From positions 1-33,280 of IMG/VR virus record IMGVR_UViG_2700989274_000006: a stretch of DNA of 33,280 nt; one strand, given 5' to 3'. Below are positions 1,327-25,337 of the stretch, piece by piece; the first letter of the stretch is position 1; each line of letters starts with the position of its first letter. The position numbers and the translations under genes are program-made. Under the pieces are notes generated by a model that saw only the letters and a list, made by a program, of their open reading frames with translations, had not been told where the DNA came from and made no database searches. This stretch comes from a virus. Taxonomy: Duplodnaviria; Heunggongvirae; Uroviricota; Caudoviricetes.

Positions 1327-1442
1327 TTCCATTAAAAATCAACATATTACAAAATATCATCAACTATTGATCAAGATAGATTTTCATGTATCGTAATACA
1401 CAGTTTAGTCAATGATACAGCAACTACACAGGAGATAAGCCA

Positions 1443-1883
1443 ATGGCAACCCCAGCAACTGTATCCATAGAACCCACTCTGGCAGCTATCAGAGCTCGCT
1501 GGTGTATTAATTCAAGTAAAACAACTCAATCCTTTAACGATCCTGCGTCCATGGAAGAGGTTGTCGAGTATCTCAAAGGAACATACTCAGCTCTTCGCAA
1601 GTCTGTCGCATGCGCCAAACTGAAAATTTTACATCTTAAACAAAGAATGCAAAATGCTACTAACTTTCTCGCGCGTCTGATGTCATGTAAAAATCAGGCA
1701 TCCAGATCGCATCACAGTACGGCTAAATCAGCTAAAAGTGCCTTATCATCAGATTCAGGTGATGGTAGTGACCCCGACCCCGAGCCCGAAACGTTTCCTT
1801 CTGCCTTCATTACTACCCCTACTAATTCAATAATGCTTAAAGCTTTCTTTGCCAATATCTCAATCACTGAGGTGGCAAAATGA
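1443..1883 (+). CDS. Hypothetical protein with acidic Ser/Asp/Pro-rich low-complexity tail
   Basis: 146 aa ORF preceded by AGGAGA about 8 nt upstream; its stop overlaps the alpA-like start (ATGA); no recognisable domain. Confidence 0.4.
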   Translation: MATPATVSIEPTLAAIRARWCINSSKTTQSFNDPASMEEVVEYLKGTYSALRKSVACAKLKILHLKQRMQNATNFLARLMSCKNQASRSHHSTAKSAKSALSSDSGDGSDPDPEPETFPSAFITTPTNSIMLKAFFANISITEVAK

Positions 1884-2104
1884 GCGCATTCAAACTCCCG
1901 GATACATCTCAATCACAGCTCATTTCAACAGCTGAGTTAGCTAAAATCATTAGCTACAAATCTCAAACCATTCGTAAATGGCTTTGTCAGGACAAATTGC
2001 CTGAGGGGCTACCTCGCCCAAAACAAATCAATGGCCGCCATTACTGGTTACGTAAAGATGTCCTCGATTTTATAGATACATTTTCTGTACGAGAAAGTCT
2101 GTAA
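1880..2104 (+). CDS. alpA: AlpA-family phage/island transcriptional regulator (excisionase-like HTH)
   Basis: 74 aa; pattern LISTAELAKIISYKSQTIRKWLCQDKLPEGLPRPKQINGRHYWLRKDVLDFI matches the AlpA winged-HTH family; its position just downstream of the integrase is as in CP4-57. Confidence 0.65.
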   Translation: MSAFKLPDTSQSQLISTAELAKIISYKSQTIRKWLCQDKLPEGLPRPKQINGRHYWLRKDVLDFIDTFSVRESL

Positions 2105-2222
2105 TAAATTACAGATTTAATTTTATTGATTTATAGCGATGTTGCCCCGAGAAAAATGGGGCAACACTGAGAAATTTCAGATAGTAGTTTTATATTGAGA
2201 TAACAAAGAGGTTTCCTTAAAA

Positions 2223-3077
2223 ATGTCTAATAGTGTTACTAATTTTGAGATGAGCAGCGTTCTACCAGGAAAAAAACCTTGTCAAGGCAAAAACAATGAG
2301 TCACAGGTAGTACAGACTACTCCCATAAAAAAACACTCAGTCACGTTCAAAAATCAATCTTCATTAGGAGTAATTGATCATTATGCCAGACTAACAAATA
2401 AATCTCACTCTTCCGTAATAGCGGAAGTTGTGGATTTGGCTATCCCTATATTAGAAAAATGCAATCGTCATAACTGGTCAATAAATGAAATAAAAAATGA
2501 CCTGTTAAAGTTCTCTATAAAAGAAAGCATCAATCGAAGCCGAGGTAAAACAGAAGTAACTCTGGAAGAGTACTGTTCGTTAATCTGGAAAACGAACATC
2601 ATGAGTCCATTAAAAATCCCCATTGCAGATTACTTTCAACTGAACGCTAATGATGAATTCATGGGGAAAGATGAAAAAACAGTTATACGTGAAAGGCTAT
2701 CCTCGCTGAGGGAAAATTACGATATGGAAAAAGCCATTTACATTTACAATCAACGACATTTTAATGTAAAGCATCAAAGTGTCTCAGGATATTCAAACAT
2801 TATTCTTATTCATAGAACAACCTTTGAGGATTATTACTTTGATGTCGGGCAGACTCTACTCTTGTCAACATCCCAATTAATTATATTCGGGATAAATGAA
2901 GTTCTTAGAAGAAAGGGGATTGTTATGCCTTATCCGGTTGTTTGTTGGATTGATATTTACCATGTCAATGAGATGGTGGTTATGCTGCCAGTGATCCGTA
3001 AAACAGATGTTTCCAACCGTGTTAATGCACCGGATGACATCATTATAAACCCATACTCACAGGAGAGCAGAACCTAA
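2223..3077 (+). CDS. Hypothetical protein with N-terminal ribbon-helix-helix-like segment
   Basis: 284 aa ORF in a markedly AT-rich stretch; the segment KHSVTFKNQSSLGVIDHYARLTNKSHSSVIAEVVDLAI has the beta-strand plus two-helix pattern of Arc/CopG RHH domains; C-terminal ~200 aa unassigned. Confidence 0.45.
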   Translation: MSNSVTNFEMSSVLPGKKPCQGKNNESQVVQTTPIKKHSVTFKNQSSLGVIDHYARLTNKSHSSVIAEVVDLAIPILEKCNRHNWSINEIKNDLLKFSIKESINRSRGKTEVTLEEYCSLIWKTNIMSPLKIPIADYFQLNANDEFMGKDEKTVIRERLSSLRENYDMEKAIYIYNQRHFNVKHQSVSGYSNIILIHRTTFEDYYFDVGQTLLLSTSQLIIFGINEVLRRKGIVMPYPVVCWIDIYHVNEMVVMLPVIRKTDVSNRVNAPDDIIINPYSQESRT

Positions 3078-3103
3078 GAGGTAACAAAGAAGGACAAACA
3101 ATT

Positions 3104-3802
3104 ATGAGAGGTAAAATACTACTTTACCACTCAAAGTATCGCTGGCAATCACGCTCTATTTTTGGTTATTTTTTATACAAAATAACATTATTCAGGTATC
3201 AAAAAATAATTTATGACACCGGAGTGCATCAGATGCGTTCATTTTTTTACACCATATGCAGTAGCGAACAGCAAGAAAGCATTACAGATCATCACTCACT
3301 TGCTGAGATATGCCAAAAATTTAATATTCTACCTGAACATGTTGTGATCGAGCAGGTAGATATTAAAGAGGTTGTTTCAGAGCAACGTTTACTCAGACAA
3401 TTGATTCATCATGAAATGAACCGGCAGGACACGCTTGTCATTCCAGATCTAAGCTGTCTTGGCAGAACTGTGGAGGACTTACAGAATATTTTATTTTTTT
3501 GCCTTCAAAAAGAAATGTTTATCTACAGCTACCATCCAGCTTCAAGGATAGAGCCTTCTGCTGAAAGTTGCTTGTCTTTTTTGATTGCTCGTCAGGATAC
3601 GATTGACATTCACAATCTGAAATCAACTAAAAGCCGATATCGACATGTTAAGAAGAAATTAGGACGAAAGGAGGGAAGCAAATACCGACGTGATATCACA
3701 ATACTTAAGAAAGGTGGATTTACTCAGGCTGAGATTGCAAAGAAATTGAGTATCAGTTTATCGACTGTGAAGCGGCACTGGAATAACGGAATCATCGGTT
3801 AA
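3104..3802 (+). CDS. Serine-recombinase (resolvase)-like protein with C-terminal HTH, probably catalytically degenerate
   Basis: Segment YTICSSEQQ ... LVIPDLSCLGR aligns with resolvase YARVSTSQQ ... LVKKLDRLGR but lacks the Arg equivalents (R8 to I, D67-R68 to S-C); C-terminal HTH GFTQAEIAKKLSISLSTVKRH; alternative start at 3233 (MRSFFYT, GGAG upstream). Confidence 0.5.
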   Translation: MRGKILLYHSKYRWQSRSIFGYFLYKITLFRYQKIIYDTGVHQMRSFFYTICSSEQQESITDHHSLAEICQKFNILPEHVVIEQVDIKEVVSEQRLLRQLIHHEMNRQDTLVIPDLSCLGRTVEDLQNILFFCLQKEMFIYSYHPASRIEPSAESCLSFLIARQDTIDIHNLKSTKSRYRHVKKKLGRKEGSKYRRDITILKKGGFTQAEIAKKLSISLSTVKRHWNNGIIG

Positions 3803-3904
3803 TTCCAGAAGCTAATTGCAGAGTAACTTTTTAACAGCCATCACAGGCTGGGGCTACCTTCGTCTCAAATTTAGATGTTGGATAGGTATTATAATGGCAT
3901 TGTG

Positions 3905-4063
3905 TACTCTTACTACCTGTATTCACCAGTAAGAGTAGTAATCAGATCAGTATATCCGTACTAAGATCTGATACCAGTATATACCGACAACAGTGACCAG
4001 GAATAGCCCTGCCTGTATGGCATCCCTGTACGGTCTGCTATAGACCGTAGGACCAAATACAGG
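3905..4063. promoter_or_regulatory. Cluster of inverted repeats immediately upstream of the YfjJ-like gene (candidate operator or origin-like structure)
   Basis: 9-bp IR tactcttac (3905-3913) / gtaagagta (3929-3937); nested dyad cctgtat (4012-4018) ... tacggtc (4029-4035) / gaccgta (4043-4049) ... atacagg (4057-4063); direct repeats of cagtatat(a/c)ccg at 3948-3990. Confidence 0.3.
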
Positions 4064-4071
4064 TATATATT

Positions 4072-4698
4072 ATGAAAACATATCAAGGTACTCATGGAGT
4101 ACATATCCTCGAATATCAGATCAAGATTAAAAAATTATTATGTTATTTGACTAACCGTTACCCCAGGTTAACGGCGGTACGTGTCGATCTGCATTATCCG
4201 AAGATAGTCGATAACGGAGACAATATCTGCTGTTTCCCTAATCTTGAACCAGGGGTGATATCCCGAATGCGTGATTCCCTCAGAGCTAAACTGGAGGCTG
4301 ACCGTACCCGTAAGGAGCGTGAAGGTAAACGCATCTACCGTTGCCCTTTATTTATTATATGGGCGAAAGAGTATTCTGAATCAGGTAAATGCCACTATCA
4401 CATTTGCCTGTTGTTCAACAAAGACGCTTACTACCACCTCGGGGATTACGATCAGCACGATAACCTGAGAGGGATGATTACGGGAGCGTGGTACAGCGCC
4501 CTGAGACTGGAGAGAGACGATCACCCAGGTCTGGTCCATTTTCCTGATAACTGTAAGTACGTGCTGGATACCAATAATGCTGACTTCCAGCATAACTACC
4601 AAGCGCTGTTAACCCGACTGGATTACCTCACCAAAGTCGAAAGCAAAGTGTTTGGTGAAGGAGACCGTAACTTCGGCTGTAGCCAAATCGATCTGTAA
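4072..4698 (+). CDS. YfjJ/YagK-like protein (inovirus Gp2-type family)
   Basis: 208 aa; recalled similarity to the CP4-57 YfjJ / CP4-6 YagK family (PRLTAVRVDLHYP, CHYHICLLFNKDAYYHLG); position after int-alpA is as in CP4-57; family assignment is from memory, not a search. Confidence 0.5.
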   Translation: MKTYQGTHGVHILEYQIKIKKLLCYLTNRYPRLTAVRVDLHYPKIVDNGDNICCFPNLEPGVISRMRDSLRAKLEADRTRKEREGKRIYRCPLFIIWAKEYSESGKCHYHICLLFNKDAYYHLGDYDQHDNLRGMITGAWYSALRLERDDHPGLVHFPDNCKYVLDTNNADFQHNYQALLTRLDYLTKVESKVFGEGDRNFGCSQIDL

Positions 4699-4707
4699 GT
4701 CGGCAAT

Positions 4708-4737
4708 GGCCTTCTCTTTGTGGGAAGGCCTATTTTA
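4708..4737 (+). terminator. Rho-independent terminator downstream of the YfjJ-like gene
   Basis: GGCCTTC (4708-4714), 9-nt loop, GAAGGCC (4724-4730), followed by TATTTTA. Confidence 0.55.
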
Positions 4738-4785
4738 CGTCAGAGTTCAATAATATAACCAGCAGATAACCTGCCCCCAGGATCT

Positions 4786-5577
4786 TCAATTTGGTGTGAT
4801 TTTTCCACTTTCAGTCATGATAGCGATTGCTTCGTCGATAGTCTGTGTTGTAAAGAGCGAGTTTTCCCTACAGTCCTTGCGAATCACCTTCCTGTTTTTT
4901 TGCACAGAAATGTTCTCGCACCAAGCTAATGTTTCGGCGGCATGCTTTTCTTCCATGCTAATGTCCAAAAAAGCGAGGCGGCTATCAAGGGATTGCATAT
5001 CCTCATTGACAATTGAAGGACTGGATTCTAGGAGGTTCAAACGGTTTTCAACATCGGCAACCTTGCCTTTCACCTGTGAGACGTCTTCCACCAATTTTTC
5101 ATGTCTGTGGATAGCATCAGCAAGTGCTCGTGAGTTTTGGGCCAATATTTCAGCCATTTGCGCGAGGGCAGATCCTTTTGCTTCTGGCGGTGGTGGATAT
5201 ACTCCATGTTTAGTCAACGATGGTATGACCTCATGGAATAACCATTTTTGAAAGCGCTTACCAGCCGCGCTTCGGTCACTCGACATAACTCGATACAAAC
5301 CTGGTTGGGTGACGAAGATCTCTTTCTGACCTTCAAAAACACCATTTTCAGCATCTGTAGTAATATACTCATCGGGGTCAAGAGCCTGTAATTGCGCCCT
5401 GATTATTCCAGCCATCGATTTTACTGTGTAATCAGCGTTGATTTCTCTATTTTCTTTATTCAGCGTGATTAAAACATCTCGTAGTGAGATATATAGAATC
5501 TCACCAAGTATCAATGTTCTTAGATCACTTTCACCAGTCTCACCACGGTAACATATCTTGGTCAGGTTACTATTCAT
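4786..5577 (-). CDS. BRO-N domain protein (phage antirepressor-like)
   Basis: 263 aa; N-terminal Bro-N signature QPGLYRVMSSDRSAAGKRFQKWLFHEVIPSLTKHGVY; coiled-coil-like C-terminus; GAGGA 4-5 nt upstream of the ATG. Confidence 0.6.
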   Translation of the reverse strand: MNSNLTKICYRGETGESDLRTLILGEILYISLRDVLITLNKENREINADYTVKSMAGIIRAQLQALDPDEYITTDAENGVFEGQKEIFVTQPGLYRVMSSDRSAAGKRFQKWLFHEVIPSLTKHGVYPPPPEAKGSALAQMAEILAQNSRALADAIHRHEKLVEDVSQVKGKVADVENRLNLLESSPSIVNEDMQSLDSRLAFLDISMEEKHAAETLAWCENISVQKNRKVIRKDCRENSLFTTQTIDEAIAIMTESGKITPN

Positions 5578-5632
5578 TGATCCTCACATCGCAAAGTATA
5601 GGCACATTCAAATCAGTATCTTTTTTCCTGTG

Positions 5633-5665
5633 CTGTTCTGAGGTGAGTATATCACCTCAGAACAG
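5633..5665. repeat. Perfect 14-bp inverted repeat with 5-nt loop
   Basis: ctgttctgaggtga (5633-5646) / gtata / tcacctcagaacag (5652-5665); lies between the 3' end of the methyltransferase-helicase-T5orf172 operon and the BRO-N gene start; no U-tract on either strand. Confidence 0.5.
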
Positions 5666-5691
5666 GTGGCCAAATTCGGTGTGTCACTTCA

Positions 5692-6870
5692 CTATGCCTT
5701 CACCAGTTTCGCAGACATGGGGTCATAAACATACCCAATGATGCTACCATCCTTAATACGTGCAACAGCCTCATCGATAACGAATAACGGAACGAGAAAC
5801 CATTCCTCGGGCTGTACTGGATGGCCGAAACGGTCGTTAATGGTAATGTTAAGCCTTGCGGGTGCAAACAACCTGTGAAACAGGTTTTCCATCCGGGTGC
5901 GGTTGATGCCTGCAAGCTTGTATGAAGCTACTACCTCGACCTTCGCTAACAGATAGGTGGAATCGTGTTCCGCATTGGCAATACGCGCCTCTACTTTGCC
6001 GCCAGTCACTCCAATCTTGTGAATGACATCACGATGTTCAGCTACATAAGGGTTATCAGATAGCGAACGCAACACATAAATGGTGCCACTTTCTAGATCG
6101 CTCTCTTCTAGAGCATCGCTGAATAAAGGCCCCATGTCTGGATCGGTAATTCGGCGTGCTGTTTCGTCTTTATACAAAGCACGAACCAGTGACAGCCGAA
6201 GTAGGTTGCTTTCCGTACCATTCGAGTAAATGACACGCAGTCGAGCATCTTTCTTCCCCTGTGGCGAATCGAACTCTTCACCTTCCTCAGCCACATAAGC
6301 CGTTTGACCATCCAGGATGAACCAATGGCCCACTTCAATCGTTGCATACTGTCCAAAAGGTCGGGTCACTCTTAACCCTGAACTTAGATCACTGCGCACC
6401 TGTTCAAATAGCGGTTTGAATGTATCAAAATCCTCGCACGGCTTGCGATCCGCGATCCCTTGTACAGCACGCTTTTCGGAGCTAGCACGAACATGACGCA
6501 AGACTGTGATATCGTCCTCGCTGGTAACATCCGCCAGTTCGGCAGCCAAATTATCGATATCGATAAATTCGTCCGCTGACTCCGCTCCCTCCCCCCCTCC
6601 GGCCAACAAGCCCTGATGATCCAGCGGCTCTAGCAAGGCACGGCAGTCTGGGAGACTGCGTAGCCGGTCGAGCCGCACTGCATAGAGGCGCTCGAAGATC
6701 TCACGATCTTCGCCGTGTTGCGGCGCACGTCCATGTTGGTCAGCGAAGCGCTGGATTTCCTCAAAACCTGCGATGATGCGTTCCTCGCTGGCTGGACGTC
6801 CTTTTTTCTTCTCCGGTGGTGCAAATTCGGCAAGTTCTGCCGCCAAATCGTCTAAATCAGAATTACTCAT
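5692..6870 (-). CDS. T5orf172 (GIY-YIG-like) domain protein, third gene of the candidate defense operon
   Basis: C-terminal motifs GTIYVLRS, HKIGVTGGKVEARI, MENLFHRLF, EEWF match the T5orf172 family pattern; preferred start at 6870 (MSNSDLDD, GGAGGG 5 nt upstream, 8-nt overlap with the helicase stop); the longest ORF extends to 6936. Confidence 0.6.
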   Translation of the reverse strand: MSNSDLDDLAAELAEFAPPEKKKGRPASEERIIAGFEEIQRFADQHGRAPQHGEDREIFERLYAVRLDRLRSLPDCRALLEPLDHQGLLAGGGEGAESADEFIDIDNLAAELADVTSEDDITVLRHVRASSEKRAVQGIADRKPCEDFDTFKPLFEQVRSDLSSGLRVTRPFGQYATIEVGHWFILDGQTAYVAEEGEEFDSPQGKKDARLRVIYSNGTESNLLRLSLVRALYKDETARRITDPDMGPLFSDALEESDLESGTIYVLRSLSDNPYVAEHRDVIHKIGVTGGKVEARIANAEHDSTYLLAKVEVVASYKLAGINRTRMENLFHRLFAPARLNITINDRFGHPVQPEEWFLVPLFVIDEAVARIKDGSIIGYVYDPMSAKLVKA

Positions 6871-8908
6871 AATGTCCCTCCGCCCTAAAACGCATAAACG
6901 CGGCTGCACCTTCTGCAAGGTGCTTTTCCCAGGCATCCGGCGAAGTTAACGATGGGAGGCGTCCACGTTCACGTTTGAATTCAGCAGCACGCTTGGCGAT
7001 CACTTTGGCATCTTCAGGCGTGATCGAGGTACGCTTGGCCGAGATGGCCGCCGCGACCTGCTTCAAGCTATCTTCGCTCATTGTCTTAGCAAGGATGGCG
7101 TAGGCTTCACCAAAGGGATTGATGCGGTCGATAAGATCTATGTCTAAATCGCGTACGTCCATCGCAAAGCGACGCACTCCGTCAATAAGGGCAGTATTGA
7201 GCGTCCCATCGTTCTCGCCGTTGACAATACGCTTAGCCTGCTGCGTGAGATTAAGGGCGGCAATAGCGTGCTGACGCACAGCCTCCTGATCTTCAGCGCC
7301 AAGTTCAGGGTACTTTTCTTTGATGATCTTCCCCATACGAACCTGTGTTAATTCTTCAGGAATGAGCTCTTCGTCGAACAGTCCACGTTCGATGGCGGGC
7401 TTATCTTGCACAAAAGCCGCGATCACTTCATTTAAATCTTCCTGGCAGATGCGTGCCGCCTCTTTGCTCCTGGGCTCGGCAAGTCCCTTAATCTCGATTT
7501 GATACGTCCCTGTCTGCTCATTAACACCAAAATTGCAGTTATCCGGGTCATACCCTCCTTCACCATAATCAAAACCTGGGGTCGGGCCGCTTTCTGGGTT
7601 CTTAGGCTTGAACTCGAAGCGCGGAGCCAATACTTGCTCCATCAGCAGGCTTGCCGCGATGGCTTTCAAGGTATCGTTGACTGCCTCGGTGACTGCCCCC
7701 TCTACAGCATCCGGCTCGGCGATCAGGTTAGTAAACCTTGCGCGGGTTTTACCCGGCGCGTCGCGAGTGGCGCGACCGATGATCTGCACGATCTCAGTCA
7801 GGCTGGCACGGTAACCAACGGTCAACGCATGTTCGCACCAGATCCAGTCGAAACCTTCCTTCGCCATACCAAGTGCAATAATGATGTCCACATAATCACG
7901 GTCTGTCTTCATTTCTGCAGCACGGAGACTTTCCTGAATCTTGCCTTGGCTGGTTGGGTCCACCAGGTCAGCAATACGTAACACGCGTCCATCGAGGCAT
8001 TTGACTAGCTGAAAACCAGTCACAGGATCCGCTCCTTGCCAATCGCCAAGCTCGCCGAGAATGTGCTCCACCTCTTTGATTTTATCCTTCGTGCTCTCGC
8101 GCGAATTGACGTTGGGAATATGGATAATGGTCTTCTTGTCAGGATCGAGTACATTGAGGATGTCATCGACGTAGGAGCCACTGTAGAAGAAGTAGCCGAT
8201 ATCGAGTTGCTTGAGGTATTCGTAGCCGTTAAGTTGTTCGTAGTAGGTGTAGGTGACGGTATCGAACCTGGACTCATCCTGAGGAGCCAACACGGCCTCC
8301 GCATCACCCCGGAAGTAGGATCCGGTCATGGCAACGATGTGCGTCTTGTCCCGCGCGATAAACTGCCCCAGCTGCTGACCAAGCTTATTATCCGGGTTAG
8401 CTGACACATGGTGGAATTCATCGACCGCGATCAGGCGATCGTCAAACGCTTCTATACCGTAGGCATCGACCGCGAAGCGAAAGGTTGCGTGTGTGCAAAC
8501 AAGCACCTTGTCACTACTTTCAAGAAAAGAGCCAAAAGATCTTACCTTGCCACCGTTGTCGTTACCGGGCGCGTTGCACAGGTTCCACTTAGGTTCGACA
8601 TGCCAATCAGTCCAGAATCCAAACTGCGATAGCGGTTCATCGTTGAAGCTCGCGCCGATAGATTTTTCCGGCACAACGATGATTGCCTGTTTAATCCCTT
8701 GATTTTCGAGTTTGTCGAGTGCGACGAACATCAGAGCACGACTCTTACCGGAGGCGGGCGGCGACTTGATGAGAAGATATTGTTCTCCGCGCTTCTCATA
8801 GGCCCTTTCTTGCATAGGCCGCATCCCAAGAGCATTAGCCTTGGTCGATGCTCCGCTGCGTGAGTAGGTAACGGAAACGGACGGTACTGATTTAATCTTG
8901 TTGCTCAT
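6863..8908 (-). CDS. SF2 DExH-box helicase/translocase (type III restriction Res-like ATPase)
   Basis: 681 aa; Walker A SPPASGKS, motif II VDEFHH, motif III MTGS, motif VI QIIGRATR; ~250 aa C-terminal extension of unknown function; start overlaps the methyltransferase stop (ATGA). Confidence 0.8.
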   Translation of the reverse strand: MSNKIKSVPSVSVTYSRSGASTKANALGMRPMQERAYEKRGEQYLLIKSPPASGKSRALMFVALDKLENQGIKQAIIVVPEKSIGASFNDEPLSQFGFWTDWHVEPKWNLCNAPGNDNGGKVRSFGSFLESSDKVLVCTHATFRFAVDAYGIEAFDDRLIAVDEFHHVSANPDNKLGQQLGQFIARDKTHIVAMTGSYFRGDAEAVLAPQDESRFDTVTYTYYEQLNGYEYLKQLDIGYFFYSGSYVDDILNVLDPDKKTIIHIPNVNSRESTKDKIKEVEHILGELGDWQGADPVTGFQLVKCLDGRVLRIADLVDPTSQGKIQESLRAAEMKTDRDYVDIIIALGMAKEGFDWIWCEHALTVGYRASLTEIVQIIGRATRDAPGKTRARFTNLIAEPDAVEGAVTEAVNDTLKAIAASLLMEQVLAPRFEFKPKNPESGPTPGFDYGEGGYDPDNCNFGVNEQTGTYQIEIKGLAEPRSKEAARICQEDLNEVIAAFVQDKPAIERGLFDEELIPEELTQVRMGKIIKEKYPELGAEDQEAVRQHAIAALNLTQQAKRIVNGENDGTLNTALIDGVRRFAMDVRDLDIDLIDRINPFGEAYAILAKTMSEDSLKQVAAAISAKRTSITPEDAKVIAKRAAEFKRERGRLPSLTSPDAWEKHLAEGAAAFMRFRAEGHYE

Positions 8909-11712
8909 GCATTAGTTCTCACTTTACGCTTCTTGCCTTTGGCCGGTGCAGCAGAAGCGGCCATCTTTATATAAAGATCAAATAGCTTTTCAAGCCGCTC
9001 TGTATCATTCTTAAAGCGACGGCCGATGTAGATGCGCTCCAGTACTTCATCATTGCGATCATGCGCAGCCCGCAGATCAGTAGGCATGTTAGCAGGATCG
9101 TATAGGTCCGCGATGGTCGCGGGAAAATGATGCTCACGCGCCAGAAGTATGTCCTCCGCGCAGCGTGTGAGGTCAGCCTTGTTTTTTTCTGTGAGTTTTG
9201 GTACTGGGAAGGTGTTCCAGCCGAGGGTGTTAGAGTAGCGGTAGCGTGTTTCCAATTTTCCGCAGATGGTGGCGATCCAAACCAGGTGTAGACGAGATGC
9301 AATGAGCGCAAGATTCCAGAGCGGAGCGTCGTAGAGAGCAAAGGCGAGGTTACTGACTACCGAATGATTATCAATCAGTCCAACAGGAAGATACTCGCGC
9401 CCTTCCGATGAAACCCCCGGTAGAATCAGCGTGTGCTTGCCACCGTGATACATTTCGCGAAACTGATGAGCCCGTGATGCTAACTCATTCGTACCAGCAT
9501 CTTTACTTTTGAGCCGCATTTCCCGAACGCCATCAATCCGACCCCGAATAGACGCAATCTCCAAAGCTTGCGGCAATTTTACATCAGGGATCCAGAGGCA
9601 CTTACGTACTACTCCGCGAATAAACTCGGCAGAACCATAGATGCGCCGAAGAAATGTCTCTTCATCCTGCTTGCTCAAACCGAGCGAAACCGCGTCATCC
9701 GCCGATAACAAAAGATTTCCCCCATCGACGGGCATGTTGCCAAAAGACATATCCGGCAGACCCGATATGCTCTTGCGCTGGCCCTCGACTACAACATCCT
9801 CACCAACACTCAGATAGGGCGTGATGTTTGTCGCCTCGCGTACAGTAGTTTGGCCATTGCGGTCCAAGTCGTAAAGTAGCCTTGTCTTACTCACATCCGT
9901 AGATAGGCCGACGATAGCGACTGTTACACCCGCGTTGTGTGCAGCAAGGTTCGTCCATTTGAAGCTGGAGTGCGCGAAGCGAATGTGGGAGCCACATTTG
10001 AAAATTGCTGGCCACAGGATAGGAACAATTCGGCCTTGACAGATAGAGTTGGTGCTAACAAAAGCCGAATCCGTTGGTGTGGCTTGCGCGTAGGCAGCAG
10101 CTTTCATGAACCAACCACCAACATAATCGATTTGTTTAGACGAAATACCATAAGGTTCAAATACCGAAGCCAAATCCGCTTTCTGCTCTTTAGTCTGCGT
10201 TTGGCTACCTTTGTAAGGTGGGTTACCACAGATGTATGTCTCCCCACCTTCGTTCTGAAAGCCAATCTCTGCTTGACCGAGAGGCGTCTCAAAGAGGTTA
10301 TCTGCCTGCAACTTCACGCCAATTCCGGACGGAGGGCAAACGCTCAACCAATCAATCCGCAATGCGTTGCCACATGTAATCCAATTATCATTACGCAGAG
10401 GAAGAAACTCGGCCAGTGCAAGTTTTAGTCCCCGGTACACCACATCGCACTGATACTCAGCAATAACTAGCGCGAGACGGGCAATCTCCGCAGGGAAATC
10501 TCGTATTTCGATCCCGCGAAAGTTGGTAAGAGGGATGTCAGAGGCATTATCCATCTCGCCACGTCGTCGATTAATCTCGGCCTCGATGGCTCGCATTTCC
10601 TTGTACGCAATCACTAAGAAGTTGCCAGATCCACATGCTGGGTCGAATACGCGGATTCGGGCCATACGCTTGCGCAGATTGAGCAGCATGCGCGGATTGT
10701 CACCGGCTTCATCCAGTTTCGCCCGCAGTTCGTCGAGGAATAGTGGGTTAAGCACCTTGAGTATATTGGGGACACTAGTGTAATGCATTCCCAACTCACC
10801 ACGCTCTTCGTCTTCGGTAATGGCCTGAATCATCGAGCCGAATATGTCTGGGTTGATTTTGGTCCAATCCAGATTGCCAACATGTAGAAGATAGGATCGC
10901 GCAATACGGCTGAAGCGCGGTACCTCCTCACTTCCCGAGAAAAGAGCGCCGTTTACATAAGGAAACTCAGCAGCCCAACGCGGGATACCGACAACACTTC
11001 GCTCATCGCGTGGGGTGTTCATTGCACGAAACAACGTGGCGATGACCTCGTGCAAATTAGAAGCGTCGCGCTCACTCATCTGCGCAATAGTGTCAGTAAA
11101 GCGCCCCTTGCCTATAAATATGTCAGTGTCTTCGGCGAAAAAGCAGAAAATTAGACGCGCCATGAACTTGTTCATGTCATGACGACGCCCCGAAGTACCC
11201 CATTCAGGATTGTCTTTTAACAGTTCGACGTACAGGCGGTTCAAACGGCTAGTAGCACGGATGTCAAAGGCGTCTTCGCTGATCTGCCGAACAGTGCTGA
11301 TACCTGCCAATGGCAAAAAGAAGCCGAAGTGATCGGGAAAGTCTTTAAAGGCACAAGCCACAGTCTGACCACTGTTGAGGTCCTCGGCTTCAAAGTATTT
11401 GCCGTCCGTGGCAAGGATGAATTTCGCCTTGGCCTTGCCTGTTGCCGGGCTGGCCTTAAGTGCAGCCAGCATCTGTGTGACTTGGCCCCCTTCACTGGCC
11501 AGAATGTGGATGTTGTTTGTCTGAAGAACACCACCCAAGTCGGACTTATTCGATGCCCCGGCGCGCAGACGTTTGATGGTCGTTTCCTTGTTACCAAAGG
11601 CTTCAAGAAAAGCATAAGGAAACTCTATAGGATCAAAGGGTTGTTCCGCAAGATCCGTGATGGCTTGCTCAATTTCTACGGCGTTCATTTGCGTACAGTT
11701 CTCCATTGGCAT
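8905..11712 (-). CDS. MmeI-family (type IIG/IIL-like, YeeA-like) N6-adenine DNA methyltransferase, apparently without endonuclease motif
   Basis: 935 aa; SAM motif I FDPACGSGNFLV, catalytic motif IV GNPPY; further MmeI-family blocks MARLIFCFFAEDTDIF, LGMHYTSVPNILKVLNPLFLDEL; no PD-(D/E)xK seen in the N-terminal ~120 aa. Confidence 0.85.
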   Translation of the reverse strand: MPMENCTQMNAVEIEQAITDLAEQPFDPIEFPYAFLEAFGNKETTIKRLRAGASNKSDLGGVLQTNNIHILASEGGQVTQMLAALKASPATGKAKAKFILATDGKYFEAEDLNSGQTVACAFKDFPDHFGFFLPLAGISTVRQISEDAFDIRATSRLNRLYVELLKDNPEWGTSGRRHDMNKFMARLIFCFFAEDTDIFIGKGRFTDTIAQMSERDASNLHEVIATLFRAMNTPRDERSVVGIPRWAAEFPYVNGALFSGSEEVPRFSRIARSYLLHVGNLDWTKINPDIFGSMIQAITEDEERGELGMHYTSVPNILKVLNPLFLDELRAKLDEAGDNPRMLLNLRKRMARIRVFDPACGSGNFLVIAYKEMRAIEAEINRRRGEMDNASDIPLTNFRGIEIRDFPAEIARLALVIAEYQCDVVYRGLKLALAEFLPLRNDNWITCGNALRIDWLSVCPPSGIGVKLQADNLFETPLGQAEIGFQNEGGETYICGNPPYKGSQTQTKEQKADLASVFEPYGISSKQIDYVGGWFMKAAAYAQATPTDSAFVSTNSICQGRIVPILWPAIFKCGSHIRFAHSSFKWTNLAAHNAGVTVAIVGLSTDVSKTRLLYDLDRNGQTTVREATNITPYLSVGEDVVVEGQRKSISGLPDMSFGNMPVDGGNLLLSADDAVSLGLSKQDEETFLRRIYGSAEFIRGVVRKCLWIPDVKLPQALEIASIRGRIDGVREMRLKSKDAGTNELASRAHQFREMYHGGKHTLILPGVSSEGREYLPVGLIDNHSVVSNLAFALYDAPLWNLALIASRLHLVWIATICGKLETRYRYSNTLGWNTFPVPKLTEKNKADLTRCAEDILLAREHHFPATIADLYDPANMPTDLRAAHDRNDEVLERIYIGRRFKNDTERLEKLFDLYIKMAASAAPAKGKKRKVRTNA

Positions 11713-11993
11713 GTGACCGCCCTGCTGCTACTGGTGTGCAGTGAACTCATGTCATATCCTAGGTTTTCTTGGAAATTTTTGACCGTAAGTTTAACAGAAT
11801 AGAACCCAGCGCTGTAGCTGATTCAGTCTCAGATCCACGTTTCAGAAAGCCCTATTATGTATTTATGGCGAGAATTTTAGCATTGAGATATTTTCGATAA
11901 AATATACATATTTTCAGCCAATTAAAGACTGCTAAATTCATGGTATATGAGACGCTCGCATGTGAGTAACTTCCGTTCTTATTTCTGGTTTTC

Positions 11994-13316
11994 TTAAAAC
12001 GTATTAAGGTTGCACCGAATATGGTTTTCCCCGCTGACCCTGACCCGATTGACTGTCCAGTCAGCTATGACGTCAAGCACATGACGAAGGTAGCTTTCTG
12101 GATCCACGCCGTTTAGTTTGCACGTCCCGATCAGACTGTACATCAGCGCTACACGCTCACCTCCGTGGTCTGAGCCGAAGAACAGCCAGTTTTTTCTCCC
12201 CAAACTGACCATCCGCAGCGCATTTTCAGCGATGTTGTTATCGGCTTCTGTCCAGCCATTGCCTGCATAGTGCGTCAGGGCCGGCCACTGGTTAAGGGCG
12301 TACGCGAACGCTTTCGCCAGCTCTGAGTGTCGTGACAGGGTGTTCATCTTTTCACGCAGCCAGCTTTCCAGGGATTTCAGCAGCGGTTTCGCTTTCTGCT
12401 GACGTTCAGCAAGACGTTGCTCCGCCGGCATTCCCCTTATTTCCGCCCCGATGGCATACAACCCGCCGATACGCTTCAGGGCATCCTCCGTCAGCGCCGA
12501 CGGCGTGCGGGCGTACACATCGTGGATTTTACGGCGGGCGTGAGCCCAGCAGGCGGCTTCCGTTATCTGGCCACCGCGGTACAACTCGTTGAATCCTGCA
12601 TACGCATCCGCCTGCAGCACTCCCCTGAAGCCGGCAAGATGGGTCTGCGGGTGGATGGCTTTTCTGTCCGGGCTGTAAGCGAACCACACCGCCGGTGCGA
12701 CTGCTGACCCGGCGTTGCGGTCATCACGAACGTACTTCCACAATCGCCCGGACTTCGTCTTCTTATTGCCCGACAGCAGCATCTGGACCGGGGTATCATC
12801 GACATGGAGTTTGCCGTCGCTCAGGACATAGCCCCGAAGCGCCTCCTCCAGCGGTGACAGCAGCCTGCAGCATGCATCCACCCAGCCCGACAGGAGGGAG
12901 CGGCTCAGTTCCACACCCTGGCGGCTATATATTTCAGACTGGCGGTACAGCGGGGTATGCTCTGCATACTTTGAGCCCAGTACCCGGGCCAGCAGCCCCG
13001 CTCCGGCGATACTCCGCTCGATGGGACGTGAAGGCGCGGGGGCCTGCACGATAGCGTCGCATTTTGTACAGGCGTGTTTTTCCCGCACGGTCCGGATAAC
13101 CCGGAAGGCGCTGCGCATCAGCTCCAGCTGTTCAGCAGTATCTTCACCCAGCCAGCGCAGTGAATCGCCACAGTCCGGGCAGCATGATGCCGCCGACAAC
13201 AGCCGTTTTTCGTCACGAGGGAGTGATTCGGGGAACGGTTTACGGGTGCGGGTCTGGCGAAGCGACCACGCTCCAGCCGTTTGGTCAGCAGACACAGCCT
13301 GTCGCCGGTAGACCAC
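11994..13316 (-). CDS. tnpC: IS66-family transposase TnpC (N-terminus likely truncated)
   Basis: 440 aa; conserved IS66 TnpC blocks LPRDEK, CPDCGDSLRWLGEDTAEQLEL, IVQAPAPSRPIERSIAG, HTPLYRQSEI; only ~26 aa precede the LPR motif whereas family members usually carry a longer N-terminal zipper region. Confidence 0.8.
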   Translation of the reverse strand: MVYRRQAVSADQTAGAWSLRQTRTRKPFPESLPRDEKRLLSAASCCPDCGDSLRWLGEDTAEQLELMRSAFRVIRTVREKHACTKCDAIVQAPAPSRPIERSIAGAGLLARVLGSKYAEHTPLYRQSEIYSRQGVELSRSLLSGWVDACCRLLSPLEEALRGYVLSDGKLHVDDTPVQMLLSGNKKTKSGRLWKYVRDDRNAGSAVAPAVWFAYSPDRKAIHPQTHLAGFRGVLQADAYAGFNELYRGGQITEAACWAHARRKIHDVYARTPSALTEDALKRIGGLYAIGAEIRGMPAEQRLAERQQKAKPLLKSLESWLREKMNTLSRHSELAKAFAYALNQWPALTHYAGNGWTEADNNIAENALRMVSLGRKNWLFFGSDHGGERVALMYSLIGTCKLNGVDPESYLRHVLDVIADWTVNRVRVSGENHIRCNLNTF

Positions 13317-13486
13317 AGCAATTTTACCTGACTGCCACTGCAGCCCCGGAAGATGAAGACTTGGCCGGACATCGGGTCGTCTTTCAGTGCCGTCTGCACT
13401 TTTGCCGCCAGCCCGTTGAAGCCGTTGCGCATGTCGGTGATACCGGCAACCAGCCAGATTTTAGTGCCTGCAGGAAGATTTATCAT
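13118..13486 (-). CDS. tnpB: IS66 Orf2 (TnpB)
   Basis: N-terminal WLVAGITDMRNGFNGLAAKVQ ... KRLERGRF is the IS66 OrfB signature; the C-terminal tail looks atypical and overlaps the tnpC start by ~200 nt, consistent with a frameshift or deletion. Confidence 0.75.
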   Translation of the reverse strand: MINLPAGTKIWLVAGITDMRNGFNGLAAKVQTALKDDPMSGQVFIFRGCSGSQVKLLWSTGDRLCLLTKRLERGRFARPAPVNRSPNHSLVTKNGCCRRHHAARTVAIHCAGWVKILLNSWS

Positions 13487-13866
13487 ACAGTCCCTCGCAT
13501 CAGTTCGCGCAGGACAGTGGTGATGAGTTCAGTTGAGGGATGAGTCAGTGTTATATCTCCGCCCCGACATTTTATGTGACAGGCAGTCTGAGGTGAACAG
13601 GATGGCGGTTCGGGCGTTGGGGGAGATGGCTCTGCCCGAAATTGCACGGGTATGAGAGCAGGAAGCGACGATGCGTTTTTCCGTGGGTGGCAGACCCGCC
13701 CTTCACGTTGCCAGAGCCTTATCCATTTAAAGAGCAGGTTGTCATTGACATCATGTTGTCGGGCCAGCGCAGCAACACTTCCTTCTTTTTCAAGTGCCAG
13801 CCTGACCAGTTCCATTTTAAACTCAGGGGAATATCGTTTTCGGGGAAGTCTTTCTTTGGCGCGCAT
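13483..13866 (-). CDS. tnpA: IS66 Orf1 (TnpA, HTH protein)
   Basis: 127 aa; RKRYSPEFKMELVRLALEKEGSVAALARQHDVNDNLLFKW is an IS66/IS3-type N-terminal HTH; stop overlaps the tnpB start (ATGA). Confidence 0.8.
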   Translation of the reverse strand: MRAKERLPRKRYSPEFKMELVRLALEKEGSVAALARQHDVNDNLLFKWIRLWQREGRVCHPRKNASSLPALIPVQFRAEPSPPTPEPPSCSPQTACHIKCRGGDITLTHPSTELITTVLRELMRGTV

Positions 13867-14089
13867 TAGGTGTCCACCTGCAAATTAAGTGGGGGCTTAA
13901 GTTACAGGATAGTGGTTTCAGAGCCAGACGTTTTTGAGACAACGCTTACTCTAAACCCAAGCGTAAATGTCTATTATTGGCAAAATACCACCAGCCAACA
14001 TGAGCTGTGATGTAAAGTTGACACTGCTACAGTTACATGAGCCTGTTTATATTCTAAATAAATTCAGATAGATATTATCTCCGTGAATC

Positions 14090-14128
14090 CCCCGCCTCCC
14101 TGACCGGAGCGCGGGAATTTTTGTTTTT
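14090..14128 (+). terminator. Hairpin plus T-tract; candidate late-operon terminator (tR'-like) upstream of the lysis region
   Basis: GCCCGCCTCC ... GGAGCGCGGG imperfect stem followed by AATTTTTGTTTTT; a TTGACA hexamer lies at 14018-14023, but no convincing -10 was found. Confidence 0.35.
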
Positions 14129-14252
14129 CACGCTGAGAACCCTGTATGAATAAAACTGATGGCCTTCAGGCCCTGGAAAAACCGCTGGCGTCGCTTCCCG
14201 ATACGCTTCGCCAGCTTATTCTTGAACGTATTCAGAATCTGACCCACTACGA

Positions 14253-14262
14253 NNNNNNNNNN
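14253..14262. other. Assembly gap (10 N)
   Basis: Run of n characters; interrupts a plus-strand ORF that begins MNKTDGLQALEKP at 14146. Confidence 0.99.
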
Positions 14263-14281
14263 GCCACCGACGGCATTGCGG

Positions 14282-14695
14282 TCAGAAAAAGATGATATTG
14301 AATCGCCCATTGAAAAACTGGAGGGCAGCGTCGCTGATCTGAATAAAAAATTGTCGGTGCTGATTCCTTCTGAAGATGAAAAAAAACGCCGCGATGAGCA
14401 GTTTGCGGCGTTTTACGATTATTGCATTGAAGTTACTCTCGCAGGAATTTTGTGAAGATTTTTGAGGAGGGTAAATCTCTTCAGTAAGCTTAATGGCGGA
14501 CGCTGCAATTAATTCAGGAAGGTCCGCAAGGTCATCTGTCAGTGGATATGATGAAAAATCGGCGGCAGTTCTGTTAAGAAGCGCTTTAACTAATTCCTTT
14601 TCCTTCTCCGGCAACAAGTTGATTAGAGCTACGACTGCTTGCCTGAGTGCGATTAAATCAGCAAAAGTTTGTTTAGGTAGATTTGTGTAATCCAT
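14282..14695 (-). CDS. Hypothetical protein (extent uncertain)
   Basis: ORF with AGAGG about 9 nt upstream of the ATG at 14695; its C-terminal half overlaps a plus-strand reading frame that crosses the gap, so the true coding extent is ambiguous. Confidence 0.3.
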   Translation of the reverse strand: MDYTNLPKQTFADLIALRQAVVALINLLPEKEKELVKALLNRTAADFSSYPLTDDLADLPELIAASAIKLTEEIYPPQKSSQNSCESNFNAIIVKRRKLLIAAFFFIFRRNQHRQFFIQISDAALQFFNGRFNIIFF

Positions 14696-14808
14696 AGTCG
14701 CCTCTGTGTTTATCAGATTGACATCCTCCTCCCGCCAGTGCCCATCACTGGTGAGGTAAGATTTAACATATCCGGGGATTTGAAGCCGATAAATCCTGAT
14801 AAATATCC

Positions 14809-15836
<1,028 letters not shown>

Positions 15837-16087
15837 ATTAATATTAAATCGGATTATTTTTAGCGCTGAATGTGAAATTTAAATAAAAAGGACTCTTCCA
15901 TGAGTCAAAATCCTTGAAATCTTAAGGGTAAGATAAAAGGTCATTAGACAGAATGACACGTTTTATTAATAAATAAAGCTATTGTTTCATTCGTGTGTTT
16001 TTCTTTACAAAAGTAATCCTTGCTATGGTTGGTTAATCATGCGTTAATGGTGTTCTGGTTTGTTACAAAATTATCTGAAGCAGTCAT

Positions 16088-16096
16088 TGTTATAAT
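16088..16096 (+). promoter_or_regulatory. Extended -10 element (TGtTATAAT), candidate promoter for the csp gene
   Basis: tgttataat at 16088-16096, about 105 nt upstream of the csp ATG, which would give the long 5' UTR typical of cold-shock genes; no good -35. Confidence 0.3.
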
Positions 16097-16199
16097 TTTA
16101 TTATTTGTACCTCTTGAGATTTCCTTGTTGGTTTTTCTCTCTGATATTTTTTTTCGGACCATTCTGCCCAAGGGCTAACTTCTTCAAAAGGTAATAATG

Positions 16200-16412
16200 A
16201 TGTCTAACAAAATGACTGGTTTAGTGAAATGGTTTAACCCTGAAAAAGGTTTTGGTTTCATCACGCCGAAAGATGGTAGCAAAGATGTGTTTGTCCATTT
16301 CTCAGCTATTCAGAGCAACGATTTCAAAACGTTAACTGAGAATCAGGAAGTCGAATTTGGTATTGAGAACGGACCTAAAGGCCCCGCGGCTGTTCATGTT
16401 GTGGCACTTTGA
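16200..16412 (+). CDS. cspI: CspA-family cold-shock protein (CspI-like, prophage-borne)
   Basis: 70 aa; [38 protein letters not shown] contains the RNP1/RNP2 motifs; the sequence matches my recollection of E. coli Qin-prophage CspI. Confidence 0.85.
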
Positions 16413-16611
16413 GGTAGAAAATATTACAAACCATATTCACTTTAGATGCCCGTGTTGCCATGGTTCTCAGTATAGAACATCATCTTTTGATGTTTCTGAC
16501 AGGAATCCTTTCGGGGCAAAATGTATCTTTTGTAAATCAATGATGATTACATTTGATAATATTTCACAATACTTAAATGTTAGCCGTCTATCGTTAGATT
16601 TAAGAAAGTGA
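16396..16611 (+). CDS. Possible small zinc-ribbon protein
   Basis: CPCCHG...(21 aa)...CIFC pairs of Cys; ATG at 16396 overlaps the csp 3' end; no clear RBS; ends 7 nt before a strong terminator. Confidence 0.25.
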
Positions 16612-16618
16612 AAATGAA

Positions 16619-16640
16619 GGCTCCTTCGGGAGCTTTTTTG
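16619..16640 (+). terminator. Rho-independent terminator (UUCG tetraloop)
   Basis: GGCTCC-TTCG-GGAGC followed by TTTTTT. Confidence 0.7.
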
Positions 16641-16723
16641 CTTAGTGTCTAGTCGATGGATACTCACATATTACGGTAACATTATGAAAAAAAATAATAG
16701 TTTTTTTTAACTCTGAACCAGCA

Positions 16724-16915
16724 ATGGTAGTGCCAGTGATGACCGGAGTTAACACCATCATGCGTGAATATCCAAATGGCGAAACAACACACCTCACTGT
16801 AATGGCTGCAGGGTTTCCATCTCTGACCGGAGATCATAAAGTCATTTATGTAGCAGCGGATCGACATGTAACTTCAGAAGAAATTCTGGAAGCAGCAATG
16901 AGACTCTTGAATTGA
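16724..16915 (+). CDS. Hypothetical small protein
   Basis: 63 aa ORF; no recognised motif. Confidence 0.3.
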   Translation: MVVPVMTGVNTIMREYPNGETTHLTVMAAGFPSLTGDHKVIYVAADRHVTSEEILEAAMRLLN

Positions 16916-17084
16916 TTTGATTCTAATGCATTGATAATAAATGATAATCATCTTTATCTGTTTGTGTGAAATTTAGACCGTCGTATGTTGATTATTGCGA
17001 TGTTTCATCTTATCTTTTATACGTTTGCTCCATATAATTGACACTACTGTGTACCAGGAAAGTCATAACAGACTAAAAGAGGAA

Positions 17085-18851: not shown

Positions 18852-18859
18852 GAGGAATA

Positions 18860-24648: not shown

Positions 24649-24671
24649 ACGTCGCAGACAACAACTCTGAT

Positions 24672-25326: not shown

Positions 25327-25337
25327 AGAGGTGTGGG

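Follow-up and report, generated by a model that had tools for sequence, protein, structure and literature searches.

The three minus-strand genes between positions 11688 and 5692 of the window, which is the whole 33,280-nucleotide stretch of DNA analysed, most probably constitute a YeeA/YeeB/YeeC-type (OspHL35III-type) three-subunit restriction-modification system on an E. coli island, with an estimated probability of about 0.7. The first gene encodes an MmeI-family DNA methyltransferase whose N-terminal domain has lost the nuclease motif, the second an SF2 helicase or translocase, and the third a T5orf172/GIY-YIG protein. All three genes are intact and overlap one another. The helicase start overlaps the methylase stop in an ATGA at 8905-8908, and the helicase gene in turn shares its last 8 nt with the T5orf172 gene, which has its own ribosome-binding site. 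By their sequence, the genes form one operon with predicted translational coupling. The cassette is carried on a CP4-6-like integrative island. Up to position 12043, the window shares 99.98% identity with the island of E. coli ECC-1470. The features are as follows.

11689..12043, minus strand: native intergenic region from the methylase start to the IS66 end, the presumed promoter region
8905..11688, minus strand: YeeA/DnmA-type MmeI-family N6-adenine DNA methyltransferase with a target-recognition domain, 927 aa
11212..11688, minus strand: N-terminal domain of the methylase, aa 1-159, homologous to the MmeI PD-(D/E)xK nuclease domain and lacking E-x-K
11485..11553, minus strand: segment SNKSDLGGVLQTNNIHILASEGG, counterpart of the MmeI catalytic D...ExK stretch
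9871..10716, minus strand: gamma-class N6-adenine methyltransferase catalytic domain (Pfam MmeI_Mtase), motifs I and IV intact
10612-10647, minus strand: motif I, FDPACGSGNFLV
within 10207-10227, minus strand: motif IV, NPPY
9193..9804, minus strand: target-recognition domain (Pfam MmeI_TRD)
6863..8908, minus strand: YeeB-type SF2 DEAD/ResIII helicase or translocase, 681 aa
5692..6870, minus strand: YeeC-type T5orf172/GIY-YIG nuclease-family protein, 392 aa

The methylase and its N-terminal domain

The longest open reading frame of the methylase gene extends from 8905 to an ATG at 11712 on the minus strand (935 aa), which a first-pass annotation took as the whole gene. The start is probably M9 of this frame, at 11688, because homologues begin there and RefSeq WP_023567980.1 annotates the same start. 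No convincing sigma-70 consensus is found on the minus strand of 11689..12043, and a promoter and terminator scan of 5400-12200 gave nothing above shuffled expectation and no promoter ahead of the methylase on its strand.

The 927-aa protein belongs to the MmeI family, as it contains five collinear MmeI Pfam domains, each above the gathering score of 27 bits: MmeI_N (4.5e-33, 115.5 bits), MmeI_hel (3.8e-26, 92.1 bits), MmeI_Mtase (9.5e-113, 376.1 bits), MmeI_TRD (8.9e-82, 273.9 bits), and MmeI_C (3e-17, 63.1 bits). MmeI itself (PDB 5HR4) matches with an E-value of 5.5e-149 (phmmer), and the PADLOC profile REase_MTase_IIG (PDLC03598) with 3.4e-283. Every block on which the first-pass annotation had based its MmeI-like assignment is present. 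Numbered from the 11688 start, LIFCFFAEDT occupies aa 179-188, HYTS...NILK...PLFLDEL aa 302-321, FDPACGSGNFLV, the intact SAM-binding motif I, aa 348-359, and GNPPYKG...KADL aa 488-506. The segment FILATDGKYFEAED lies at aa 90-103 of the N-terminal domain.

Sequence comparison places the origin of this N-terminal domain in the MmeI nuclease domain, with the E-x-K catalytic residues lost and the domain under strong constraint. Its homology is shown by profiles (Pfam MmeI_N, as above, and hhalign, 97.8%), since a pairwise PDB search with the domain alone gave no MmeI match. The first ~95 residues are undetectable pairwise, and the phmmer alignment to MmeI starts at residue 96 of the open reading frame. 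In the profile-profile alignment, the MmeI-type D-x9-E-x-K falls against D50...L63-A64-S65, so that the first Asp is kept and L63-A64-S65 stands in place of E-x-K. Across diverse relatives these three positions are variable (A/L/K, V/T/A, and C/A/S) and are never E-x-K. In a regex scan, none of 120 YeeA-type fragments has E-x-K where MmeI carries it, and most of 120 MmeI-type fragments do; among the remainder, the single fragment inspected (P0143) is N-terminally truncated. The alignment with MmeI thus contains no intact PD-(D/E)xK triad, as the first-pass annotation had supposed from the N-terminal residues. The tripeptide D95-G96-K97, the sole [DE]xK of the domain, was considered as a relocated motif and rejected, as K97 is variable (E/V/A/D/K). 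The domain is nevertheless very strongly conserved within the subgroup, where N47, S49, D50, G53, Q56, N59, and H61 are near-invariant together with the subgroup-specific polar residues D95, E100, and E102.

A conventional single-chain type IIL enzyme, with an intact nuclease site that is shifted or has escaped recognition and with unrelated neighbours, is a very improbable reading of the protein. The full-length collinearity with MmeI, the conserved first Asp of the motif (D50), and the near-invariant polar set N47, S49, Q56, N59, H61, D95, E100, and E102 are all compatible with such an enzyme. However, E-x-K is absent in every register, the Lys of the only [DE]xK varies, and the motif is missing from all the YeeA-type relatives scanned while most MmeI-type fragments have it. 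The D-x9-E-x-K of a single-chain type IIL enzyme is thus absent, in line with the first-pass annotation, which had set the protein apart from that class. YeeA and MslORFHP, expressed in the same way as active MmeI homologues, showed no endonuclease activity on their own (PMC2731913). Moreover, the helicase and GIY-YIG genes accompany this gene in strict synteny, whereas no neighbour recurs consistently beside MmeI-type genes (PMC2731913). When compared to MmeI (PDB 5HR4) and the type IIL enzyme DrdV (7LO5), the helical spacer, the gamma-class m6A methyltransferase, the recognition domain, and the C-terminal domain all match, the N-terminal domain is homologous, and methylation of a single strand is likely a common property. 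In contrast, the E. coli methylase lacks E-x-K and has obligatory helicase and nuclease partners, while MmeI is a single chain that needs no partner and cleaves at 20/18 nt from its site, independently of ATP (PMC2731913).

The helicase and the GIY-YIG protein

The first-pass annotation delegated cleavage to the neighbouring T5orf172 protein. A conserved GIY-YIG/T5orf172 partner is indeed present, but it is encoded by the third gene. The gene that directly adjoins the methylase is that of the 681-aa helicase, which the first-pass annotation overlooked. The helicase matches Pfam DEAD (3.4e-06) and ResIII (1.2e-05), and its motifs I (SPPASGKSR), II (VDEFHH), III (MTGSYFRGD), and VI (QIIGRATRD) are conserved and largely invariant in 54 loci. 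A sequence search against the PDB gave no significant relative of the helicase. NCBIfam, PHROGs, and PADLOC gave generic or weak matches for the helicase and the GIY-YIG protein, with no family assignment.

The start of the T5orf172 gene is most likely at 6870 rather than at the 6936 of the first-pass annotation, because a GGAGGG ribosome-binding site precedes it. The 392-aa protein, named 'GIY-YIG nuclease family protein' in RefSeq, matches Pfam MUG113 (2.1e-13) and T5orf172 (4.1e-11) over its C-terminal ~110 aa. The core residues of GTIYVLRS and HKIGVT, the Arg of VEARI, the Glu of ENLFH, and EEWF are invariant in close homologues. IYVLRS, KIGVT, R296, and E328 do not vary among 44 homologues, which corresponds to the signature of the GIY-YIG superfamily. 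The GIY-YIG protein would be the cleaving subunit. Its AF2 model was poor (pLDDT 58.6), and the assignment to the superfamily is by sequence.

A different role for the same genes would be a methylation-guided, BREX-like exclusion without cleavage, in which the helicase blocks replication and T5orf172 is a DNA-binding module and not a nuclease. A distant relationship of the methylase to PglX/BrxX is seen in weak PADLOC and NCBIfam matches and in a separate match to BrxX (E 8.5e-04), with similarity over ~80 residues around motif I only, and methylation as a mark of self DNA is a feature shared with BREX. In addition, the T5orf172 domain is largely uncharacterised, with predicted DNA-binding roles (PMC9973331), and the genomes of Bacillus phages show no depletion of the DnmA motif. 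This role is nonetheless quite unlikely. PglZ, BrxC, and BrxL are absent from the four open reading frames scanned with PADLOC and from the gene annotation of the ECC-1470 island, which is identical, and the NCBIfam BREX MTaseX scores of 21-27 bits against cut-offs of 400-900 separate the methylase from BREX PglX, so the first-pass statement that this is not a BREX context holds. Furthermore, the invariant GIY-YIG signature (Tyr, Tyr/Lys-Ile-Gly, Arg, and Glu) is hard to explain without catalysis.

Conservation, variation, and decay of the cassette

The order methylase-helicase-GIY-YIG is found in 48 of the 55 assessable loci of other species, in Proteobacteria, Acidobacteriota, Bacteroidota, and Myxococcota. 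The other seven loci are decayed or lack partners: the methylase is truncated in four (L039, L050, L061, and L071), the helicase is truncated in one (L003), and the methylase stands alone in two (L042 and L049). The same gene order is present on two Bacillota plasmids, of Bacillus sp. BD59S and of L. salivarius (Ligilactobacillus). These triplets are full length and share 37-39% (methylase), 45-48% (helicase; 48% for the Bacillus plasmid cassette), and 28-35% (GIY-YIG) identity with the E. coli proteins, and only ~27-31% in the N-terminal domain. The cassette occurs in 100 of 5426 complete E. coli genomes, always on the chromosome, and one scan found at least 574 species-level loci of the class. 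A downstream BRO-N gene (4786-5577) was examined as a fourth component and rejected, being absent from 80 of 80 loci in other species. The cargo that the operon carries in other species varies and includes RhuM, YhcG/DUF1016, AlbA_2, and AAA_21. These families also occur in type I loci.

The helicase is the best-conserved partner, with a mean identity of 82% across phyla and ~80% between the E. coli and Acidobacteriota proteins. The target-recognition domain is the hypervariable part of the methylase, with a mean identity of 50% and a minimum of 30% to other loci. A second E. coli allele shares only 26-50% identity over aa 501-750 of the methylase. Strain 2013C-4282 differs from ECC-1470 in its recognition allele. 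The target-recognition domain thus diversifies on a constant scaffold.

These patterns bear on the view that the cassette is a functional relic. On this view, the methylase works as an orphan m6A methyltransferase with an epigenetic influence on gene expression, and the helicase and GIY-YIG proteins have ceased to restrict. DnmA/YeeA of B. subtilis is an active m6A methylase at GACGAG (Nye 2020, PMC7261158), but its locus does not limit the uptake of plasmids and gave no protection from three phages. Deletion of dnmA, yeeB, or yeeC leaves phage plaquing and transformation unaffected, DnmA regulates some promoters, and the authors regard the dnmA-yeeB-yeeC locus as a relic with an orphan methylase (PMC7261158, PMC9973331). 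The seven decayed or partnerless loci and the IS66 element that adjoins the window copy, 355 bp upstream of the methylase start, point in the same direction. On the other hand, all three open reading frames of the E. coli cassette are intact, the stop of each gene overlaps the start of the next, and the catalytic motifs are all in place. The mean identity of the helicase across phyla indicates purifying selection on the partners, and the divergence of target-recognition alleles within E. coli is expected of an active restriction system. Inactivation of yeeA/yeeB revealed that yeeAB mediates resistance of Vibrio crassostreae to one phage group (Piel 2021, bioRxiv 10.1101/2021.05.05.442762). According to the B. 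subtilis authors, YeeB and YeeC of that species miss C-terminal stretches found in the Vibrio proteins (PMC9973331). A relic is thus the less probable reading, at perhaps one chance in five, and the three-subunit restriction-modification system is preferred.

Relation to known systems and proposed mechanism

The first-pass annotation presented the split arrangement as a departure from what is known. However, the architecture, the missing PD-ExK, and the hypothesis of delegated cleavage have been known since 2009, when Morgan et al. defined the YeeA/YeeB/YeeC subgroup as a 'second set' of MmeI homologues and proposed the split mechanism (PMC2731913). The same three-protein architecture was described again in 2016 (Blow et al., S4 Fig), with OspHL35III as the REBASE prototype and 'several hundred members' (PMC4752239). 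Beyond the papers cited here, the literature yielded no newer mechanistic study of the triplet and no named defence system for it. The E. coli genes have the defining sequence features of this type, namely a divergent region of the first ~100 aa without PD-ExK, an adjacent DEAD helicase gene, and an adjacent GIY-YIG/T5orf172 gene. The DnmA(YeeA)-YeeB-YeeC operon of B. subtilis and OspHL35III show the same order of an MmeI-like methylase without PD-ExK, a DEAD helicase, and a GIY-YIG/T5orf172 protein in one operon. The likeness is drawn from the architecture and from the collinear Bacillota plasmid triplets, which serve as a proxy for the B. subtilis proteins. The E. coli cassette differs from the B. 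subtilis locus in its proteobacterial lineage and its place on a CP4-6-like island beside IS66.

The cassette is most likely a type I/III-like, ATP-dependent three-subunit restriction system. As in type I (HsdMSR), type III (Mod/Res), and ISP (LlaGI) systems, restriction would probably need a methylase or recognition subunit, an SF2 motor, and a nuclease. In contrast to these systems, the motor and the nuclease of the YeeA type are separate polypeptides, the nuclease is GIY-YIG and not PD-(D/E)xK, and the helicase shows no membership by sequence, having no significant PDB relative. Unlike in type I, recognition is built into the methylase, without an S subunit.

In the proposed mechanism, the methylase would recognise an asymmetric site and methylate one adenine on one strand as the mark of self DNA, like MmeI and B. 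subtilis DnmA. At an unmethylated site, it would recruit or license the SF2 motor via its dead nuclease domain. The motor would then translocate or remodel DNA at the expense of ATP, and the GIY-YIG subunit would cut it. Both restriction and modification would then require the methylase, in the manner of type I and type III systems, which would explain why its deletion is tolerated. The resistance mediated by yeeAB in Vibrio crassostreae suggests that the methylase may also act as the recognition subunit of the restriction complex, and the same gene inactivation makes it probable that the first-pass view of the enzyme as purely modifying is too narrow (bioRxiv 10.1101/2021.05.05.442762).

More tentatively, the N-terminal domain may be a repurposed module, in which the near-invariant N47, S49, D50, Q56, N59, H61, D95, E100, and E102 act as a switch, which would sense whether the bound site is methylated and license both the YeeB motor and the YeeC GIY-YIG nuclease. 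It is the conservation of the domain that suggests such a coupling interface. The same speculative proposal holds that the cassette is a mechanistically distinct ATP-dependent restriction type and that other defence genes preferentially insert at the methylase-helicase junction, as a hotspot.

Such systems number in the hundreds in REBASE, and the cassette carries little weight as a discovery. The class is very widespread and strikingly conserved, and its results in vivo conflict, with defence in Vibrio and none in B. subtilis. The intact E. coli copy, together with the natural variants of its recognition domain, would be a convenient model for how the system cleaves.

Domains of the methylase and loss of its nuclease motif

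The longest ORF of the methylase (8905-11712, minus strand) encodes 935 aa. Since homologues begin at its ninth codon, as does the RefSeq annotation of an identical gene, the methylase gene is most likely 8905-11688, with 927 aa, and residues are numbered from this start unless given as ORF residues. All five MmeI-built Pfam models match the protein.

Pfam matches of the methylase (minus strand)
MmeI N-terminal domain, 4.5e-33
MmeI helical spacer, 3.8e-26
MmeI methyltransferase domain, 9.5e-113
MmeI target-recognition domain, 8.9e-82
MmeI C-terminal domain, 3e-17

Moreover, the PADLOC type IIG model covers the methylase at full length (3.4e-283), MmeI (PDB 5HR4) aligns with the ORF at E 5.5e-149 by phmmer, and the SAM-binding motif I (FDPACGSGNFLV) and catalytic motif IV (NPPY) are both intact. 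Every sequence block that the first-pass annotation quoted for an MmeI-like enzyme is present in the 935-aa translation.

The same annotation described an N-terminal domain devoid of E-x-K, and the profile alignment, column composition and motif scan agree. By phmmer, MmeI aligns only from ORF residue 96 onward, and a query of the first 174 residues by themselves matches nothing in the PDB. The N-domain matches Pfam MmeI_N end to end, and the profile of 112 relatives aligns with that of 100 MmeI-type N-domains at 97.8% probability. In this alignment D50 is the partner of the first Asp in the MmeI-type D-x9-E-x-K, the E-x-K positions are taken by L63-A64-S65, and no intact triad is present. Columns 63, 64 and 65 contain A/L/K, V/T/A and C/A/S, respectively, among 149 representatives of clusters at 50% identity. 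A regex scan places D-x9-E-x-K at the expected position in 0 of 120 close methylase relatives and in most of 120 MmeI-type fragments; P0143, the only motif-less fragment inspected, is N-terminally truncated. The single [DE]xK of the N-domain, D95-G96-K97, was considered and rejected, its Lys being variable among relatives.

The AlphaFold2 model of the N-domain (pLDDT 80.6, and >88 over residues 1-130) has the element order alpha-beta-beta-alpha-beta-beta-beta. Since Foldseek against the PDB returned nothing significant, confidence in the fold assignment is moderate and comes mainly from sequence profiles. Judged by these profiles, the domain is PD-(D/E)xK-derived, its catalytic Glu and Lys having been lost. 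That the methylase is a hidden single-chain nuclease is thus highly improbable.

Partner genes and genomic setting

Two partner genes follow the methylase on the same strand, with a BRO-N gene beyond them.

6863-8908, minus strand, SF2 helicase of 681 aa (Pfam DEAD and ResIII), directly downstream of the methylase
5692-6870, minus strand, T5orf172/MUG113 protein of the GIY-YIG superfamily (Pfam), third gene of the cassette
4786-5577, minus strand, BRO-N domain protein, 114 bp downstream of the GIY-YIG gene

The helicase ATG overlaps the methylase stop (ATGA), and the GIY-YIG gene, with a probable start at 6870 and a GGAGGG ribosome-binding site, overlaps the helicase stop by 8 nt. The T5orf172 neighbour of the first-pass annotation is thus present as the third gene, the helicase between the two having been overlooked. 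Helicase motifs I, II (DEFH), III and VI are conserved and largely invariant in 54 loci, and 44 homologues of the GIY-YIG protein show no variation at R296, E328, EEWF or the core positions of IYVLRS and KIGVT.

Each partner protein also has a large conserved region that matches no family. In the GIY-YIG protein (gene 5692-6870) it is N-terminal, ~260 aa long (aa 1-260) and poorly modelled by AlphaFold2 (pLDDT 58.6); in the helicase it is C-terminal and ~280 aa long (aa ~400-681; 6863-7700, minus strand). Both are candidate subunit-interface sites.

The BRO-N gene, missing from all 80 cassette loci of other species, was rejected as a cassette member. Two E. coli islands whose recognition alleles differ encode an identical BRO-N protein, and the gene probably belongs to the island. 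No BREX components were found by a PADLOC scan of four ORFs, among the annotated genes of the E. coli ECC-1470 island or with NCBIfam, as the first reading had it; a non-cleaving BREX-like mode is unlikely.

From 1 to 12043 the window shares 99.98% identity with the CP4-6-like island of ECC-1470 (intF, yagN, yagM, yagL, yagK). The two diverge after 12043, with an IS66 element starting at ~12044, and the IS66 junction is also found in E. coli 2013C-4282. Past IS66, from 14282 to 33280, come the late genes of a lambdoid, Qin-like prophage. Among the complete E. coli genomes of the collection, none reaches 80% coverage of the island/IS66/prophage stretch (11650-18300).

11994-13866, minus strand, IS66 element, adjoining the island, 355 bp upstream of the methylase start
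13483-13866, minus strand, IS66 tnpA
13118-13486, minus strand, IS66 tnpB
11994-13316, minus strand, IS66 tnpC
14809-15342, lysozyme (this and all following, prophage late region)
15339-15836, DUF2514 (Rz-like)
18312-18851, DUF1441
18860-20959, large terminase
21096-22676, portal
22429-24648, ClpP protease-capsid fusion
26320-27069, tail tube
27796-30891, tape measure

The IS66 transposase ORF may be frameshifted or truncated, because it overlaps tnpB and has a GTG start.

Spread, cargo and recognition-domain diversity

When the N-domain alignment was scanned against one genome per GTDB species, at least 574 loci matched, the best 80 of them in Proteobacteria, Acidobacteriota, Bacteroidota, Myxococcota and Verrucomicrobiota. 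Downstream sequence is long enough in 55 of these 80, and 48 of the 55 show the order methylase-helicase-GIY-YIG; in the other seven the methylase is truncated (four loci) or stands alone (two), or the helicase is truncated (one). The N-domain also matches Bacillota plasmid genes at 27-31% identity, and plasmids of Bacillus sp. BD59S and Ligilactobacillus salivarius carry the same operon, with proteins collinear with those of the window (methylase 37-39%, helicase 45-48%, GIY-YIG 28-35% identity). Among 5426 complete E. coli genomes, 100 carry the cassette, every time on the chromosome.

In 26 of the 48 syntenic loci of other species, variable same-strand cargo of 0.6-2.6 kb parts methylase from helicase (L002, L004 at 11736-12854, L007, L014, L015 at 11688-14294, L025, L028, L030, L034, L052, L075, L078 and L081 are cargo-bearing); the window copy has none. 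Among the cargo are a YhcG/DUF1016 PDDEXK nuclease, an AAA_21/AAA_15 ATPase, a PIN protein, RhuM and a Schlafen AlbA_2 and HATPase_c_4 protein, besides three proteins (443, 260 and 364 aa) that Pfam does not recognise. Like its counterpart in type I operons, the junction appears to behave as an insertion hotspot.

On average, identity to the window copy is 83% in the N-domain, a value inflated because loci were picked by it, 71% in the methyltransferase domain and 50% in the recognition domain (minimum 30%); the helicase averages 82% and the GIY-YIG protein 64%. Within E. coli, the 2013C-4282 allele (L082, 10306-13095) and the window methylase (8905-11688) are 26-50% identical over residues 501-750 and 86-98% over the remaining scaffold, which implies that strains of the species recognise different sequences. 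The E. coli N-domain (window 11212-11688, minus strand) shares 75-90% identity, and the helicase 58-93%, with counterparts in Acidobacteriota, Bacteroidota and Myxococcota (L002-L081). For a mobile defence gene this is unusually strong conservation, and it points to a recent and broad horizontal spread, to very strong constraint, or to both.

Known relatives and proposed mechanism

The cassette is real and already known. Its methylase belongs to what Morgan et al. (2009, PMC2731913) called the 'second set' of MmeI homologues: these have no PD-ExK and are 'invariably located next to' YeeB, a DEAD helicase, and YeeC, a GIY-YIG protein. The novelty claimed for the split arrangement does not hold. 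In the same study YeeA or MslORFHP expressed alone gave no endonuclease activity. Blow et al. (2016, PMC4752239) likewise describe this three-protein architecture, with OspHL35III as REBASE prototype. YeeA/DnmA is an m6A methylase at GACGAG without restriction of transformation (Nye et al. 2020, PMC7261158). Fernandez et al. (2023, PMC9973331) described the synteny and saw no protection from the three Bacillus phages they used, and yeeAB mediates resistance to one phage group in Vibrio crassostreae (Piel et al. 2021, bioRxiv 10.1101/2021.05.05.442762). The literature searched contains no later biochemical study of the YeeA/YeeB/YeeC class.

The cassette is probably (roughly 70%) a type I/III-like three-subunit restriction system. 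The methylase would recognise an asymmetric site and hemimethylate it, marking self DNA. At an unmodified site it would engage the helicase and the GIY-YIG nuclease, probably via its conserved dead nuclease domain, and ATP-driven translocation would lead to cleavage. The first-pass annotation read the structure correctly; the methylase, which it took only to modify, probably does more. The main rival, a relic with an orphan methylase, has been argued for the B. subtilis counterpart, but is considerably less probable here: the window ORFs are intact and coupled, the partner proteins are strongly conserved and the recognition domain is diversified. A constant scaffold with a hypervariable recognition domain has, at the sequence level, the look of an actively selected restriction system.
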